Shown here piece after piece: positions 34,985 to 46,198 of a stretch of DNA of 62,309 nucleotides. The notes beneath the pieces are model-generated. The model ran no database searches. It worked only from the letters and a program-made list of their open reading frames with translations, and had not been told where the DNA came from. Both the position numbers and the translations under genes were made by a program. The stretch is from NCBI GenBank assembly GCA_003697105.1, contig RFFQ01000131.1, positions 1 to 62,309 of the forward strand, read 5' to 3'. How positions within the stretch are numbered: position 1 is the stretch's first letter; each line of letters opens with the position of its first letter. This stretch comes from Gemmatimonadota bacterium (GTDB lineage: Bacteria; 4572-55; J002).

Positions 34985-35653
34985 ATGTGTGGACGGTTTG
35001 TGCGGAAAAGCCGGATTGATGAGATTGTGTGGGCATTTGCCGTCGATGAAGTCGCTGCAGATGTAGCTCCCAGCTATAATATCGCTCCGACTCAGGACGT
35101 TGTAGCCCTCATCGCCGCCAACGGTAAGCGGCGTTTGGGCGCGTTGCGGTGGGGATTGATCCCGTTTTGGGCAAAAGAGGTTGCTACGGGTAACAAGATG
35201 ATCAATGCCCGTGCTGAAAGCGTGATGGAAAAAGTCAGTTTTCGGAAGCCGTTCCTCCACCAACGGTGCTTGATTGTTGCCAATGGATTTTATGAGTGGA
35301 AACGGTCTGGAACGACCAAAGTGCCGGTGTATATCCGGCTTAAATCGGATATGCCGTTTGCCTTCGCCGGACTGTACGACACGTGGACCTCTCCGGCAGG
35401 GGAGCGCATTAGCAGTTGCACGATTCTCACAACTGGAGCAAATGAATTGCTCCGGGATGTTCACCACCGGATGCCCGTTATTCTGAATGAGACCGCTCAA
35501 GAAATCTGGTTAGACCGTACCATGAAAGACCCCGCCCCGTTACAATCCGTGCTCCAGCCGTATCCCCCGGATCAAATGGAGTTGTTTGAGGTCTCAACGC
35601 GGGTCAATTCGGTCAAAAATGATGATGCCGGCTTGATTGAACCGGTATCCTAA
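34985..35653 (+). CDS. SOS response-associated peptidase (SRAP/YedK/HMCES family)
   Basis: N-terminal MCGRF, YNIAPTQ, WGLIP.W, INARAE, GFYEW and HHRMPVIL. Confidence 0.93.
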   Translation: MCGRFVRKSRIDEIVWAFAVDEVAADVAPSYNIAPTQDVVALIAANGKRRLGALRWGLIPFWAKEVATGNKMINARAESVMEKVSFRKPFLHQRCLIVANGFYEWKRSGTTKVPVYIRLKSDMPFAFAGLYDTWTSPAGERISSCTILTTGANELLRDVHHRMPVILNETAQEIWLDRTMKDPAPLQSVLQPYPPDQMELFEVSTRVNSVKNDDAGLIEPVS

Positions 35654-35662
35654 AGGGTGCTC

Positions 35663-36703
35663 ATGTCGAAGCTCATAATACCCCTATGGATCTGTTGTTT
35701 TTTAGTGTTTCCAAAGATTACCCCAGCAGAAGTGGTGACATACCGTGATGTCACCGGGGTCGAAGTCGGTTGGTATGATGCCAGCTATGCCCTCGTGATC
35801 ACCCTGAGTGATTATCAATATGCTTGGGGTGACTTGGATTTTTTAAACGAAGATGCCAATCGGGTTGCCGGAGCCCTAATGGAACAGGGGTTTGAGGTCG
35901 TGCGGGTGAATAACCCAGACCATCACGCGCTAACAGCGGAAATTCAGCAGTTTTTTGATATTTACGGGCAACAGCGTTACAGCCGGTTGGTGGTTTACAT
36001 TGCCGGACATGGTTACACTCTAGGTGAAATGGGCTATATTGTGCCGGTAGATACCCCTTTGCCGCAAACAGACCCTACCGGATTTTTAGCAACGGCTCTG
36101 GAAATTAAGCAATTGCAACACATTGCCAACCAAGCTCCTGCCAACCATGTGTTGTGTCTGATTGATGGCGATCTTTCGCCTACACGGCTCGATCTAAATC
36201 CCGGGATGGTGCGCCCGCTCAGTTTTACCACCAGTGAACCCGTACGGCAATTTATCATTTCCGGTAGTGATCATCAAAATCAGTGGAATCGCAGTATGAT
36301 AGCCGACCAATTTGCCAAAATATTGTACGGAAAAGCCGGCGAGATCGGTAAAGACGGGTATCTGACGGGCGCGGAGATTGGGTTTTATTTACAACAACGC
36401 ATCGCGCTGTTTTCCGCAGGTTCGCAACGGCTTATTTTTGGGCAAACCGGTGCGGGTGATGTGGTTTTTACCACGACCCCAAGTCTATCCTACATTTTAG
36501 CCACCCAACGGGCATTGATGCGAAATGAGTTTTATCTAAATCTGATCGATGTGACTCGTACGGATGACCCGTATAGTTGGCAGTTGCTCACCCGGCGCTA
36601 TATGCGGCAACCGTTAGCCCCGCTGAAAGAATCCGAGGAAACGCGGAAAAAGAAAGCAGAACAGACGGGTAAAAGTGTATTTGGTGAGGAATATGATTTT
36701 TAA
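35663..36703 (+). CDS. Exported caspase-like (C14) domain protein, probably catalytically altered
   Basis: YALVI..SDY, DA..VA..L...GFEV and YIAGHG..GYIVPVD. LIDGD stands where DxC is expected. Confidence 0.7.
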   Translation: MSKLIIPLWICCFLVFPKITPAEVVTYRDVTGVEVGWYDASYALVITLSDYQYAWGDLDFLNEDANRVAGALMEQGFEVVRVNNPDHHALTAEIQQFFDIYGQQRYSRLVVYIAGHGYTLGEMGYIVPVDTPLPQTDPTGFLATALEIKQLQHIANQAPANHVLCLIDGDLSPTRLDLNPGMVRPLSFTTSEPVRQFIISGSDHQNQWNRSMIADQFAKILYGKAGEIGKDGYLTGAEIGFYLQQRIALFSAGSQRLIFGQTGAGDVVFTTTPSLSYILATQRALMRNEFYLNLIDVTRTDDPYSWQLLTRRYMRQPLAPLKESEETRKKKAEQTGKSVFGEEYDF

Positions 36704-41265: not shown

Positions 41266-41291
41266 ACCGATTTTTTGGAGCGTATTTGGGG

Positions 41292-42737
41292 ATGAAATAT
41301 CATCATGTTTTCGGATTTTTAGCCGGGTTTGTTTTTAGCTTAATCCTGTTCACCGGTTGTGACGATAACGTGCCTTCCACGGGTTTGCCCAGCAACAACG
41401 CCACCGGCGATCCGGTTGTCGGGTGGGAGTTGTATTCTGGACAACGGGCAATTACGAACCCGGCGGCGCCTTATGCCTGCATCACGTGTCACGGTGGGGA
41501 TACCTTACAAGTCTTGCCACCGGCACATTCGCTGAAAAATGTACGAAATCGGGGTATCTGGTGGGTCGGCTTGGACTCCGCAAGTGTGGTATTTTCGCTG
41601 CGGGAAGCCGTCAATGTCTGTTTGACTAATTGGATGCAGAGTGACCCGCTTCAAGCAGAGCAAGAGACGTGGGAGCATCTGGATGCGTATCTGGACTCGA
41701 TCTCCACCGGCACCGGTGGATTTATCATCCATATTGATACGGATTCCATGAATATCGATCCCATTATCGCCGATCCCCATGACGGCGATTTGGCATACCG
41801 CGAAGCGTGTGAGCCGTGTCATGGGGATGTCATCACCGGTAATGGGGGTTATCTTCCGGCACCGCTAACACTAGAGGATTGGCTCCGGCGTGACCTGCTT
41901 ACCGTCGTTCGTACCAGTGGATTGCCCGTAGAATTTGGACGCAGCGAACCCGTTTCTATGCTGAAAATGCCATTCATTGCTAGTAGCCGTCTCTCCAATG
42001 AAACAGTCAATACCATCCAAAGCTATGTGGCGGATACCCTTTACCGGTATGACCCTGACCATTATGAAACGTTGATCATGGAAAATCCGGCAGTGGGTAA
42101 TACCGATCCTCAGACCACCCACAATTATGCCTGTGCTACCTGTCATGATCTAGAACCGCCTCCCAGCCGCGAAGACCCCACCCGGTTCATTTACCCCGGA
42201 GGCAATCTGCATAACGTGGCGGATAGCTCCGGCTGGTGGGTCTCCAATTTGTGGGATTTTGATCAAACTACCTTAAAAGGCGCAATCAATCTCTGTGTAG
42301 AAAAGTGGATGGCGGGCGATCCACTACCCAATTATAAAGCTTATGAAACCTATCTGAGGCATCTGACCAGTGATCTGGAAGCGTCGAATCCCTCCCCAAG
42401 TGAACGCTACTTGACTACGTTTACGGGTGCGGATGCGACCAATGGACGCCATATTTATGATCGATCGTGTGTGGGATGCCACGGAAGTGCGGAAGGGGAC
42501 GCGATCCCGCCGTTACCAAATATACCAACGGCGCTTTTCACCGATTATAACACAATAGAAGCGTATCCGGCACTGGTACAATGGGTGCGTTATGCCGGAA
42601 CGGGTTTAAGTGAGATGGCGGCGGTAAACCAAGCTGACATGCCCTACTATGGCGTACAAGTTCTCCGGGATGACGACTTGCGAGACCTAATTTATTATCT
42701 GGTACATGTCGTGAATGGGGGTCCCGAGCCGGAATAA
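41292..42737 (+). CDS. Tetraheme c-type cytochrome lipoprotein
   Basis: Lipobox LFTGC and four CxxCH motifs: CITCH, CEPCH, CATCH, CVGCH. Confidence 0.85.
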   Translation: MKYHHVFGFLAGFVFSLILFTGCDDNVPSTGLPSNNATGDPVVGWELYSGQRAITNPAAPYACITCHGGDTLQVLPPAHSLKNVRNRGIWWVGLDSASVVFSLREAVNVCLTNWMQSDPLQAEQETWEHLDAYLDSISTGTGGFIIHIDTDSMNIDPIIADPHDGDLAYREACEPCHGDVITGNGGYLPAPLTLEDWLRRDLLTVVRTSGLPVEFGRSEPVSMLKMPFIASSRLSNETVNTIQSYVADTLYRYDPDHYETLIMENPAVGNTDPQTTHNYACATCHDLEPPPSREDPTRFIYPGGNLHNVADSSGWWVSNLWDFDQTTLKGAINLCVEKWMAGDPLPNYKAYETYLRHLTSDLEASNPSPSERYLTTFTGADATNGRHIYDRSCVGCHGSAEGDAIPPLPNIPTALFTDYNTIEAYPALVQWVRYAGTGLSEMAAVNQADMPYYGVQVLRDDDLRDLIYYLVHVVNGGPEPE

Positions 42738-42808: not shown

Positions 42809-43792
42809 TCACGGCACCACCACCGCAGACCCCTCAAAATGACCCTGCCGTAAATCTTCCAGAGCTTTGCCCGTTTGATTCAGCGGGTAGGTGGTCACAT
42901 TGGTCTGTACGGGGACTTGAGGGGCAAGTTGTAAAAATTCCACTCCATCTTGACGGGTGAGATTTGCCACAGACCGGATGGAGCGCTCCTGCCACAACAT
43001 TTCATAAGGGAACGCCGGAATGTCGCTCATGTGGATGCCGGCACACACCACAACGCCGCCCGGTTTGATCGCCTGCAACGCTAATGGGACCAAATGACCC
43101 GCTGGGGCGAAGATGATTGCTGCGTCGAGGGAGACCGGGGGTGTCTCATCGGTACCGCCAGCCCACACGGCGCCTAAGGAGCGGGCAAATTTCTGGGATT
43201 TCCGGTCACCGGGACGGGTAAACGCCAACACGTCTTTCCCCTGATATACCGCAATTTGGCATAAAATGTGAGCGGCTGAACCAAAGCCATAAAACCCCAA
43301 TACCTCTGCCGTGCCCGTAAAGCGGTATGCCCGGTACCCGATCAATCCGGCGCAAAGTAGAGGCGCGGCTTGAACATCCGGGTAACCCTCTGGAATGGGA
43401 AAACAAAACTGCTCGTTCGCAGTAGTGTATTCGGCGAATCCCCCCGGCCGGGTATATCCGGTAAAAACCGCATCTTCACATAAATTTTCTTGTCCCCTAC
43501 GGCAAAACGGACAAGTATTACACGTTTTACCCAACCACGGTACCCCAACCCGATCCCCGGGAGAAAATCGGGTGACCGCCCTGCCGGTTTTTTCAACAAT
43601 ACCCACAATCTGGTGTCCTAAAACGAGGGGTAATTTTGGTTGGGTGAGTTCACCATCTAAAATGTGCAAATCTGTACGGCAAATTCCGCACGCCCGCACT
43701 TTTAGTAAAACTTCATTTTCAGCCGGTTCGGGGATTGGTATCTCCTCTAGTTGGAGGGGTTGACCAGCGCCGCGCAAAATTATGGCGTTCAT
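42809..43792 (-). CDS. Zinc-dependent alcohol dehydrogenase (AdhP-like)
   Basis: CGICRTDLH, GHQIVG, C..C.FC..G.ENLC, APLLCAG and GFYGFG. Start at ATG 43792. Confidence 0.92.
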   Translation of the reverse strand: MNAIILRGAGQPLQLEEIPIPEPAENEVLLKVRACGICRTDLHILDGELTQPKLPLVLGHQIVGIVEKTGRAVTRFSPGDRVGVPWLGKTCNTCPFCRRGQENLCEDAVFTGYTRPGGFAEYTTANEQFCFPIPEGYPDVQAAPLLCAGLIGYRAYRFTGTAEVLGFYGFGSAAHILCQIAVYQGKDVLAFTRPGDRKSQKFARSLGAVWAGGTDETPPVSLDAAIIFAPAGHLVPLALQAIKPGGVVVCAGIHMSDIPAFPYEMLWQERSIRSVANLTRQDGVEFLQLAPQVPVQTNVTTYPLNQTGKALEDLRQGHFEGSAVVVP

Positions 43793-43885
43793 GTGAAAAA
43801 ATCCTTGCTTAGGGGTGGGGGATGCTATATACAAAGAACAGCTTTGTTTGTATTGTACCGCAACCCAGTTCATTTGTCAACGTCC

Positions 43886-46198
43886 ATGAAAATCTTGTCC
43901 TCAATTCTGATCAGTGCCGTCTTGATCCATGCCGCGCTGACGCTTTACTATAGTTATCGTCATCCCCGCTTTGACCCCAATGATGCAACCGGCTTATTTT
44001 GGGCAGAATCTGCCTTGCAATACCATTATGCCCATCAAATTGCACAAGGACACGACCTCCCTGCCATCGACAAACGGGCGCAATATCCGGAAGGTTTAAA
44101 TCTACAACAGGATTTGACCATTTTCATGGAATATGTGATCGGGTATGCCTACCGGCTTATTGGCTTCGGTGTACCGTTTCATGTATTTGCGGTCTGGTGG
44201 ATGGCGTTTTTCGCTGCCCTTAACGTCGGGGTATTGGGGTTGTTGGTTTACCATCTAACAGGGAATCGATTGGCAACGGCGGTGGCAGTCTGGTTTTATG
44301 CGCTGAGTCCGGTGGCGTTTGCCCGAACCGTGGGGAATTTTTTGCGGGAAGATTTTGCTCTGCTCTTTTTCTTTGGGGGCGTTTTACTGTTGATGTTGGC
44401 ATTATCCTCTTCCCCTCACCAACGACGGTATGCTGCCGGTGCGGGGGTAAGTTTTTTTATCTTGTTGAGTGCCTGGCATTTTGGACAGTTTGCCTTTTTG
44501 ACCGTCATTGCCGGATTGGCGGGGTTACATTTGCTCAAACCGGGAGCATTACGCCTTTCCACCTTCCTCTGGATTTACGGATTCGCGCTTGCCGCTGGGC
44601 TCTTGATGCCTCCGCTGCGTGCCCGGTGGTTTGCGCTCTCCCTACCAATGGTGATCAGCTTGTCCCTGATCGGGACGTTGATCGCTCACGAAAAGAATCT
44701 AATGAGCCGCCGCCGTTGGACGATCCTTTTTCCCTTTGATTTAGCATTTTGGTTACTCGTCGCCAGTTTCTTTCGTAAAACGGAAGATTATGCCCATGTC
44801 ACGCAATTGGCATGGAACAAACTTCGCTTTTTCCTGCAGAAACCCGCCGATCCTTCCCTGTTGCCCTATCACGCCCGCATTCTCTGGTTGGAGCCCTTCA
44901 ACAGCCCTGTCGTTGGGGAAGCCCTGTACCAGTTCGGGCTGGTGCTCCCCCTGACACTTATGGCGTTGGTTCTGCTGATTCGCAACTGGCGTAACCTACC
45001 CACCTCCCAGCAGGGCATGATTTATTTGAGCCTGATTTATCTTGTCGCCGCGATTTTGATCGAACGGATGAATGTCTTTGCGATTTTCTTTTTCTGTGGG
45101 GGGATCGGCTTAATAGTGTCCCAGATGGGATATACCAAGCGATGGCAACCGGTATTATGGGGTGTCCTGATCTTCGCTTTGGGCTTTCAAAGCTGGGTCG
45201 CGCTGAATTATGACCGTCCGAATCCATTCCGAAACTGGACGACAACGCTAACTCCTCCTCGATTAGAAATCCCCAATTATCAGGCGGATACCCGCGATAT
45301 GCTCCGTTGGATTCGCACGGAAACTCCGCAAACCTCCGTTTTTTTGAGCCGGTTTGCGGTGGGACCCTCGATCTATGTGTACGGTAACCGGGCGATCAAT
45401 TTGCAACCCAAATTTGAGTCCGTCGGCATTCGGGAGAAGGTGCGCCGGTTTACAGAAGCGTTGTACCAGTCGGAAGCCGATTTTTACGCACTTTGCCAAG
45501 CATGGGGCACAACACATTTTATTTATGAAGCCGCTTTTACCTTGGATCGTTCGCCGGAATCGGTGCGTTATCTAGCAGACCGGCTTGATCTGCCCCTCGA
45601 TTCGTTTGCATTTCAATGCCATTTTGCGGATCAAACCTTGACTTACTTTACCCCGGTTTATCAAAACTTTTATTTTAAGATTTTTGCGGTGTCGCCTCCG
45701 GATTCCATTGGCTCACCGCCGTTATTAACGCAACCGCTGTTCGACCCAAACCTATTTCAAATTGATTGGAACCGCCCGTTTTTTGATGATAGTCTCACCG
45801 ATGATGTGATTTTTCGGATTCACCAAGCGACCGCGCACAACAATCGGGGTATGCAGTTCCGCCAACAAGGGCATTATCAGCAAGCACTTCAGGAGTTTCA
45901 AACGGCGATTCAAACACTGCCCACCTTGCCGGCGCCTTATTTTAATCTGATCCAGTTGTTTGCCGAACACCGCCAGACCAACCAGATTCCGCTGGTGTAC
46001 CAGCGATTGATCCGGGGGCATCCTGATTTTGTCCCATTTCGCATTGAATTGGGGCAGTTTTGGCTACAACAGCAACAGTGGGAACAGGCGTTACAGGCAT
46101 TTCAGGTGGCGCAGGCGCTTGATCCTCAAAATCCGTATGTTCAACGTCAGTTACGCTATATTGAAGCCCAACGGAAGGGGAGGTCTTCCGCCGATTAG
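43886..46198 (+). CDS. GT-C fold glycosyltransferase, DPY19/STT3-like, with C-terminal TPRs
   Basis: Many TM helices, ESALQYHY, D..AQYPEG.N, LREDFAL.F, WHFGQF, LRWI...TP..SVF and R.I..QPKFE...IR, followed by TPRs. Start chosen at ATG 43886. Confidence 0.75.
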   Translation: MKILSSILISAVLIHAALTLYYSYRHPRFDPNDATGLFWAESALQYHYAHQIAQGHDLPAIDKRAQYPEGLNLQQDLTIFMEYVIGYAYRLIGFGVPFHVFAVWWMAFFAALNVGVLGLLVYHLTGNRLATAVAVWFYALSPVAFARTVGNFLREDFALLFFFGGVLLLMLALSSSPHQRRYAAGAGVSFFILLSAWHFGQFAFLTVIAGLAGLHLLKPGALRLSTFLWIYGFALAAGLLMPPLRARWFALSLPMVISLSLIGTLIAHEKNLMSRRRWTILFPFDLAFWLLVASFFRKTEDYAHVTQLAWNKLRFFLQKPADPSLLPYHARILWLEPFNSPVVGEALYQFGLVLPLTLMALVLLIRNWRNLPTSQQGMIYLSLIYLVAAILIERMNVFAIFFFCGGIGLIVSQMGYTKRWQPVLWGVLIFALGFQSWVALNYDRPNPFRNWTTTLTPPRLEIPNYQADTRDMLRWIRTETPQTSVFLSRFAVGPSIYVYGNRAINLQPKFESVGIREKVRRFTEALYQSEADFYALCQAWGTTHFIYEAAFTLDRSPESVRYLADRLDLPLDSFAFQCHFADQTLTYFTPVYQNFYFKIFAVSPPDSIGSPPLLTQPLFDPNLFQIDWNRPFFDDSLTDDVIFRIHQATAHNNRGMQFRQQGHYQQALQEFQTAIQTLPTLPAPYFNLIQLFAEHRQTNQIPLVYQRLIRGHPDFVPFRIELGQFWLQQQQWEQALQAFQVAQALDPQNPYVQRQLRYIEAQRKGRSSAD

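Follow-up and report, generated by a model that had tools for sequence, protein, structure and literature searches.

We analysed a 62,309-nucleotide stretch of DNA (hereafter the window), positions 1 to 62,309 of contig RFFQ01000131.1 from the assembly GCA_003697105.1 of a Gemmatimonadota bacterium. The genome amounts to 4.18 Mb in 199 contigs with 48.5% G+C, and the sequencing runs containing this stretch are DNA runs labelled as hot springs metagenome, with no RNA run among the listed ones. At positions 43886-46198 of the forward strand lies an open reading frame (ORF) of 770 aa plus stop, which starts with ATG and is free of internal stops. It is near certain that the encoded protein belongs to the DPY19 branch of the GT-C (glycosyltransferase C) enzymes, membrane proteins that depend on lipid-linked sugars. 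As judged from its alignments, it is a bacterial DPY19 relative fused to tetratricopeptide repeats (TPRs), with active-site residues that appear intact and a predicted periplasm-facing orientation. The features delineated in the ORF, with the extracytoplasmic loops abbreviated EL, are as follows.

43886..46198, forward strand: whole ORF, DPY19-family GT-C glycosyltransferase with a C-terminal TPR tail (ORF, Pfam, AlphaFold2 model)
43886..45205, forward strand: membrane core, residues 1-440, 13 transmembrane helices (model helices, Pfam Dpy19, collinear DPY-19 alignment)
44006..44008, forward strand: Glu41, counterpart of DPY-19 Glu71 and proposed acid/base (profile alignment)
44324..44350, forward strand: EL2 segment Arg147-Glu155, with the counterparts of DPY-19 Arg211 and Glu220 (alignments)
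44474..44482, forward strand: Trp197-His198-Phe199, with the counterparts of DPY-19 Trp262 (phosphate contact) and Phe264 (lipid groove) (alignment)
44885..44899, forward strand: EL5 aromatics Trp334 and Phe338, the latter the counterpart of DPY-19 Phe401 (alignment)
45065..45076, forward strand: Arg394 and Val397, counterparts of DPY-19 Arg471 (leaving-group phosphate) and Leu474 (alignments)
45206..45745, forward strand: α/β domain, predicted periplasmic, residues 441-620, including Phe510-Glu511 and Arg516 (Pfam Dpy19 positions 433-652, alignments)
45788..46192, forward strand: C-terminal TPR tail, residues ~635-769, seven helices (TPR Pfam matches, model)

Pfam Dpy19 is the sole non-TPR family to score above its cut-off in the ORF (E = 1e-28, 100.4 bits, cut-off 27.2). 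The match consists of two collinear stretches, positions 33-337 and 433-652 of the 653 in the hidden Markov model (HMM); the former covers residues 38-313 and thus begins at Phe38. Fifteen further Pfam families appear at E ≤ 10: TPR-type models, an ARM-repeat model lying over the TPR region and a weak DUF6798 match below its cut-off. The STT3, PMT, PMT_2 and TMTC models gave no match at that threshold. NCBIfam models recognise only the TPRs, and the Pfam Dpy19 model, run as a control, matched in none of 14 control genomes. An earlier reading made from the letters of the sequence alone (the sequence-only reading) had proposed a likeness to DPY19 from five motifs. These are all present: they begin at residues 38, 62, 153, 197 and 473, and the last one continues with its second part at 502-516. 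The likeness extends far beyond chance by the Pfam score above. Four of the DPY-19 counterparts that it named could likewise be seen in alignments with the Caenorhabditis elegans protein: Leu-Arg-Glu, the Trp-Gln-Phe triplet, the C-terminal block and the motif around Glu71.

Searches of the PDB with a single sequence were nearly blind: the full protein reached the DPY-19 entry 7zlg at E 0.15 and residues 1-620 produced no matches. Family profiles, built from relatives without the TPR tail, placed DPY-19 first and STT3 second in all three cases. The profile of five sequences (A1) matched 7zlg at E 1.7e-14 (56.5 bits) and its best STT3 at E 1.4e-7 (33.6 bits); that of 28 sequences (A3) gave E 5.8e-22 (81 bits) and E 1.1e-17 (67 bits), and that of 24 sequences (A6) E 9.7e-28 (100 bits) and E 2.6e-19 (72.1 bits), respectively.

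The same ranking was obtained from the predicted structure. An AlphaFold2 model, computed with an alignment of 58 relatives, has a mean predicted local distance difference test score of 94.9 and a predicted template-modelling (TM) score of 0.92. Compared with the PDB by Foldseek, its top three matches are DPY-19 entries with TM scores of 0.71-0.74, the best being 7zli_A (E 1.9e-17, TM 0.74 by target, root-mean-square deviation 4.7, 696 columns, 18% identity). Eukaryotic STT3 comes next (TM 0.63-0.70), followed by AglB and PglB (0.46-0.53) and by ArnT and Pmt4 (0.38-0.47 by target); AftA, AftD, ArnT, Pmt4 and ALG9/12 lie far behind. Profile and predicted-structure comparisons thus both prefer DPY19 over STT3, ArnT and PMT, the reverse of the outcome that the sequence-only reading had named as speaking against it.

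In its overall build, the model resembles the DPY19 proteins (C. elegans DPY-19, PDB 7ZLG, 7ZLH, 7ZLI and 7ZLJ; human DPY19L1-L4; PF10034; GT98), with a 13-helix GT-C core and an outward α/β 'dome'. Helices were counted from the secondary-structure string of the model. Two long loops point outward, EL1 after helix 1 (residues ~25-97) and EL5 after helix 9 (~297-352). The odd number of helices, together with an N-terminus of only two residues, indicates that the loops, the α/β domain and the TPR tail should all face the periplasm, by analogy with the topology of DPY-19 and STT3. The TPRs that the sequence-only reading had reported are recovered by the Pfam models TPR_2, TPR_11, TPR_19 and TPR_1 at residues 648-753, and consensus TPR structures in the PDB match the tail. 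Compared with DPY-19, the ORF is just ~17-18% identical, has a shorter EL1 (~58 residues from Glu41 to His99 versus ~91) and adds the TPR tail.

We compared the ORF with the active site of C. elegans DPY-19. According to the available portions of two papers (PMC10154233, PMC6801728), Glu71 is the presumed acid/base, with dead Ala, Gln, Leu and Met versions and an Asp version that keeps ~80% activity; Arg211 and Arg471 hold the leaving phosphate, and R211A, E220A and R471A are dead. The same portions describe Trp262 as contacting the phosphate, Phe264 and Phe401 as lining the lipid groove, Tyr395, Phe401 and Tyr578 as stacking on the acceptor Trp, and Leu474 as the floor of the +3 pocket; mutation of Glu71, Arg211, Glu220, Arg471, Phe264 or Phe401 kills or cuts activity (PMC10154233, PMC6801728).

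We took the counterparts of these residues from HMMER alignments and counted their conservation in a MAFFT alignment of 162 family proteins, with which the alignment of 58 sequences agrees. The positions corresponding to Glu71, Arg211, Glu220, Trp262, Phe401, Arg471 and Tyr578 are conserved in ~83-99% of the 162 relatives. Position 41 is Glu in 147 and Asp in nine, the other six being five gaps and one Val, and it is Glu or Asp in all 58 sampled sequences. Arg147 is kept in 143 of the 162, Glu155 in 151 and Trp197 in 160; Trp334 is invariant (162 of 162), position 338 is Phe in 135, Tyr in five and Trp in two, and position 394 is Arg in 158 and Lys in three. DPY-19 Glu579 corresponds to Glu511, a position with Glu in 156 proteins and Asp in four. 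Two positions are looser: residue 199 varies (62 Phe, 46 Leu, 24 Val, 18 Met), and residue 397 (85 Val, 22 Ile) is not strictly conserved. On these alignments, every residue known to be essential in DPY-19 appears to be retained in the ORF and strongly conserved across the family.

Set against STT3, AglB and PglB (PF02516, GT66), the ORF has the same overall fold (TM 0.46-0.70 by target), and this group is the second-best profile match. Common to both are the EL1 pattern D-x4-[YH]-P-x-G and the Arg, Glu, Trp and Arg of EL2, transmembrane helix 6 and EL6. Other features separate them. The Asp-Asn-Glu of EL2 in STT3 aligns to Leu153-Arg154-Glu155, where DPY-19 likewise has Leu-Arg-Glu; the seven commonest family residues at position 153 are L, G, V, I, E, S and N, and the metal-binding Asp of STT3 is not among them. 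The WWDYG motif of STT3 overlies residues 488-494 without a match, as the sequence-only reading had said, and the conserved Arg502 is followed in the family by an aromatic residue and then Glu, as in DPY-19, where STT3 has Trp-Asn. The absence of both the metal-binding Asp and WWDYG fits the metal-independent chemistry of DPY19. The missing metal site, the missing WWDYG and the aromatic pocket are the only features that would point specifically to this chemistry.

HMMER was used to search 1.84 billion cluster representatives exhaustively and detected 810 proteins of the family at E ≤ 1e-3, 656 at ≤ 1e-10 and 292 at ≤ 1e-30, each of the 810 standing for a cluster at 50% identity. This large family of uncharacterised proteins is spread over many bacterial phyla that lack cultured members. 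Among 58 sampled relatives, Pfam Dpy19 was matched by 57, TPR_2 by 45, STT3 by five and PMT_2 by two; about three quarters of the family members carry C-terminal TPRs, and 126 of 162 are at least 720 aa long. In a collection of species-representative genomes we found 33 family loci, all but one of them from metagenome-assembled genomes, the exception (L020) being the genome assembly of a worm-associated deltaproteobacterium. Their labels are Elusimicrobiota, Armatimonadota, Gemmatimonadota, Glassbacteria, Thermodesulfobacteriota, Verrucomicrobiota, Planctomycetota, Kiritimatiellia, WOR-3, Eisenbacteria and Omnitrophota.

A rapidly built tree of 28 sequences from the 33 loci groups these taxon labels in part and places the ORF on a long branch near Elusimicrobiota (Shimodaira-Hasegawa-like approximate likelihood ratio test 92, computed without bootstrap). 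The nearest relative found is 56% identical to it and all others are at most 37% identical. Neither the Pfam model nor protein queries found the gene in two other genomes of the same class, and among 40 other genomes sampled as kin, two had Pfam Dpy19 matches below threshold. The lineage is sparsely sampled, since those two same-class genomes are all that the collection holds and the other relatives offered share only the domain rank.

We consider it quite possible, although short of probable for the chain as a whole, that the enzyme transfers mannose in the periplasm from polyprenyl phosphate to tryptophan residues of exported proteins. As the ORF is bacterial, a bacterial polyprenyl phosphate sugar would take the place of dolichyl-P-mannose as the donor, and the active site would lie on the periplasmic side. 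The polyprenyl-phosphate hexose, most likely mannose, would be made in the cytoplasm by a GT2 enzyme of the ArnC/GtrB/DPM1 kind and then flipped. The lipid donor would enter a groove lined by Trp197 and Phe199, Arg147 and Arg394 would hold the leaving phosphate, and Glu41 would serve as the acid/base without any metal. An unfolded exported protein would receive the sugar on one of its aromatic side chains, with C2 of Trp as the likeliest site. The acceptor residue would sit in a pocket formed by Trp334, Phe338 and Phe510, and the TPRs would dock the substrate or a partner.

The genome makes a lipid-linked mannose donor plausible. It has 32 GT2 matches, of which 30 were scanned; six of these resemble polyprenyl-phosphate glycosyltransferases (ArnC, PgfS, AglJ, PpgS and Dol-P-hexose types), and a ManC-like gene scores 302 bits. 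Seven PMT_2 matches are found elsewhere in the genome. A separate STT3-family ORF of 734 aa sits on another contig (C49:36840-40609; 35.5 bits, over the cut-off, with PMT_2 as an additional weak match); an ArnC-like GT2 gene (L045, 315 aa) is found ~1.6 kb away, and the two look like a second pair of lipid-sugar synthase and GT-C enzyme in this genome.

Several observations weigh against tryptophan C-mannosylation by this protein, or narrow the case for DPY19. DPY19 is preferred consistently but by a moderate lead, with STT3 following closely behind in every comparison; such a lead is expected, as DPY19 and STT3 are held to be related (PMC6801728, PMC10154233, available portions). A profile of residues 1-140 left DPY-19 unmatched in the PDB and found STT3 weakly, at E 0.079, and the part of EL1 surrounding Asp62, Pro68 and Gly70 aligns well to STT3; EL1 on its own looks a little closer to STT3. 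The pairing of Glu41 with Glu71 falls in an N-terminal stretch that scores -0.6 bits on its own in HMMER and is not significant by itself. We accept the pairing because it is collinear with the 100-bit stretch, because a run of similar or identical residues surrounds the Glu and because the Pfam match starts at Phe38.

Two of the residues that stack on the acceptor in DPY-19 also match the ORF less clearly. The 'peptide sensor' Tyr395 aligns to Leu333, one residue before Trp334; with the alignment putting Leu333 there and the invariant Trp334 adjoining it, either of the two may be its counterpart. Tyr578 is replaced by Phe510, at a position that is aromatic in 153 of 162 relatives.

Genomic context adds to this side of the balance. 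With a maximum of three flanking ORFs per side of the homologue, 147 ORFs in all at the 33 loci, we saw no GT2 or GtrA among the neighbours and no neighbourhood or operon conserved across clades. The sequence-only reading had asked for a polyprenyl-phosphate-mannose synthase: the six GT2 candidates bear the expected resemblance, but none reaches an NCBIfam cut-off. No TSP_1 domain was found in the genome, an uninformative result as the TSP_1 control also matched in no genome, and no protein is strikingly rich in WxxW, the count of 304 versus 217 expected from Trp frequency alone being uninformative too. The transferase activity of the bacterial members is itself a prediction.

A different acceptor atom is the main alternative, and we regard it as a tentative but serious one. 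Here, an enzyme of the same family and with the same type of donor would attach a single sugar to exported proteins by O-linkage to Ser, Thr or Tyr or by N-linkage, with the TPRs choosing substrates, much as in Pmt or TMTC proteins. TMTC1-4 likewise combine a GT-C membrane core with TPRs that follow it on the outward side, and TMTC-like proteins exist in prokaryotes; in the available part of the source, TMTC1-4 belong to a protein O-mannosylation pathway, with a transferase activity of their own not demonstrated at the time of writing, ArnT is the most similar homologue of their cores by HHpred, and the title puts them in the GT-C/PMT clan (PMC7801869). The core of our ORF sits on another GT-C branch, DPY19/STT3-like and with 13 helices, and has no PMT_2 or DUF1736-type matches.

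A further parallel is the actinobacterial Pmt, which works with the polyprenyl-phosphate-mannose synthase Ppm1. This GT-C enzyme faces the periplasm and transfers one mannose from polyprenyl phosphate to exported proteins; it belongs to GT39, forms an O-linkage and lacks a TPR tail. Our comparison with Pmt covers the PMT Pfam model, which has no match in the ORF. Closer to the protein itself, the second place of STT3 in profile and fold searches, the STT3-like EL1 segment and the five of 58 relatives that match Pfam STT3 all favour a different atom, and Arg147, Glu155, Trp197 and Arg394 are common to DPY19 and STT3 and therefore do not fix the acceptor. Against this stand the lack of WWDYG and of the EL2 Asp of STT3, the lack of PMT, PMT_2 or TMTC Pfam matches and the conservation of the aromatic pocket residues specific to DPY-19.

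Transfer to an envelope glycan or lipid, as by ArnT, AftA/AftD or Emb, with the TPRs tying the enzyme to an envelope assembly machine, appears unlikely. Many bacterial GT-C enzymes use such acceptors, AftA, AftD and ArnT occur among the Foldseek matches, and glycan-related genes neighbour some homologues (GH94 at four loci, GT4 at two, GH88 and PMT_2 at one each). However, the fold matches to AftA, AftD and ArnT are far weaker (TM 0.22-0.42 by target), conservation of these neighbours does not extend across the 33 loci, and unfolded polypeptides are the substrates of both DPY19 and STT3, the closest relatives that have been characterised.

Loss of catalysis, leaving a scaffold or a chaperone-like membrane protein, is very improbable: animal DPY19L2 and DPY19L4 have no demonstrated activity according to the available part of one review (PMC12990085) and at the related locus L010 the residue corresponding to Glu41 is Gln, but the ORF appears to retain all the residues that are essential in DPY-19, and their conservation in the family is strong. 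The L010 protein is one of two family copies in a single Pirellulales metagenome-assembled genome (L010:5929-6348 and L025:5929-6348); the change to Gln is one that abolishes activity in DPY-19, and the L025 copy retains Glu.

At the 33 loci, recurrent neighbours track close kinship: major facilitator superfamily (MFS) transporters and GH94 at four loci each, and MsrAB, HD_5 and nitroreductase at two each. The GH94 glycoside phosphorylase stands directly upstream of the homologue in L029, L030, L033 and L035, with L029 and L030 being close kin by alignment, and in L029 a PMT_2 gene follows the homologue. The MFS transporter is among the three nearest ORFs in L006, L007, L020 and L021, and in L006 and L007 it is the gene immediately upstream and shares the strand.

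Around the ORF in the window are a divergent zinc alcohol dehydrogenase, a cytochrome c protein, ketopantoate hydroxymethyltransferase, an anti-sigma-type kinase and an MscS-like channel, none of them functionally linked to it. We preferred the ATG at 43886 as its start because the starts of homologues cluster close to it. A longer ORF from a TTG at 43751 was considered and is disfavoured; the extension would overlap the alcohol-dehydrogenase ORF. The latter, as listed, begins just 12 bases from the ATG of the DPY19-like gene, and an internal Met 27 codons downstream looks like its true start, which would give a shared upstream region of ~93 bases (window 43792-43886). No clear Shine-Dalgarno sequence was seen before the ATG, and a promoter and terminator scan around the gene gave no signal above shuffles. 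The cytochrome c protein (483 aa, window 41286-42737) is encoded two genes upstream, and multihaem cytochrome ORFs adjoin the homologues at L026:2867-4762 and L032:8319-10463; this proximity is probably a coincidence. Elsewhere in the window (34985-36703), a gene for an SOS-response-associated peptidase (SRAP) is directly followed by an ORF of 348 aa for a caspase-like Peptidase_C14 protein whose N-terminus is hydrophobic.

In the available parts of two reviews, C-mannosylation and C-mannosyltransferase-like sequences are limited to metazoans, with their unicellular relatives, and alveolates (PMC8724618, PMC12990085), in agreement with the statement of the sequence-only reading that no bacterial enzyme of this kind had been characterised. 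No description of a bacterial DPY19 was found among the titles and abstracts listed by our literature searches, which cover open-access papers and preprints. The public name of the relatives is 'tetratricopeptide repeat protein', and one Atlas cluster has been named automatically after the Pfam family. Given that databases already carry the Dpy19 domain tag and that the fold is known, the novelty lies in recognising and testing the family and not in a new fold.

Our tree and family profiles comprise bacterial members; one review, in the part available, suggested that the eukaryotic enzyme was acquired by lateral transfer. Tentatively, and as a proposal drawn from sequence comparison that we would not yet call likely, bacteria may C-glycosylate tryptophan, and the family described here may be the prokaryotic counterpart, possibly even the gene-transfer source, of the eukaryotic DPY19 C-mannosyltransferases. 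If this is true, tryptophan C-mannosylation could no longer be regarded as confined to metazoans and alveolates, and thermostable C-glycosyltransferases guided by TPRs would become available. Bacterial C-glycosylation of tryptophan becomes a directly testable question, the bacterial family a candidate origin of eukaryotic DPY19, and the protein of this hot-spring organism an enzyme for structural or biocatalytic work.

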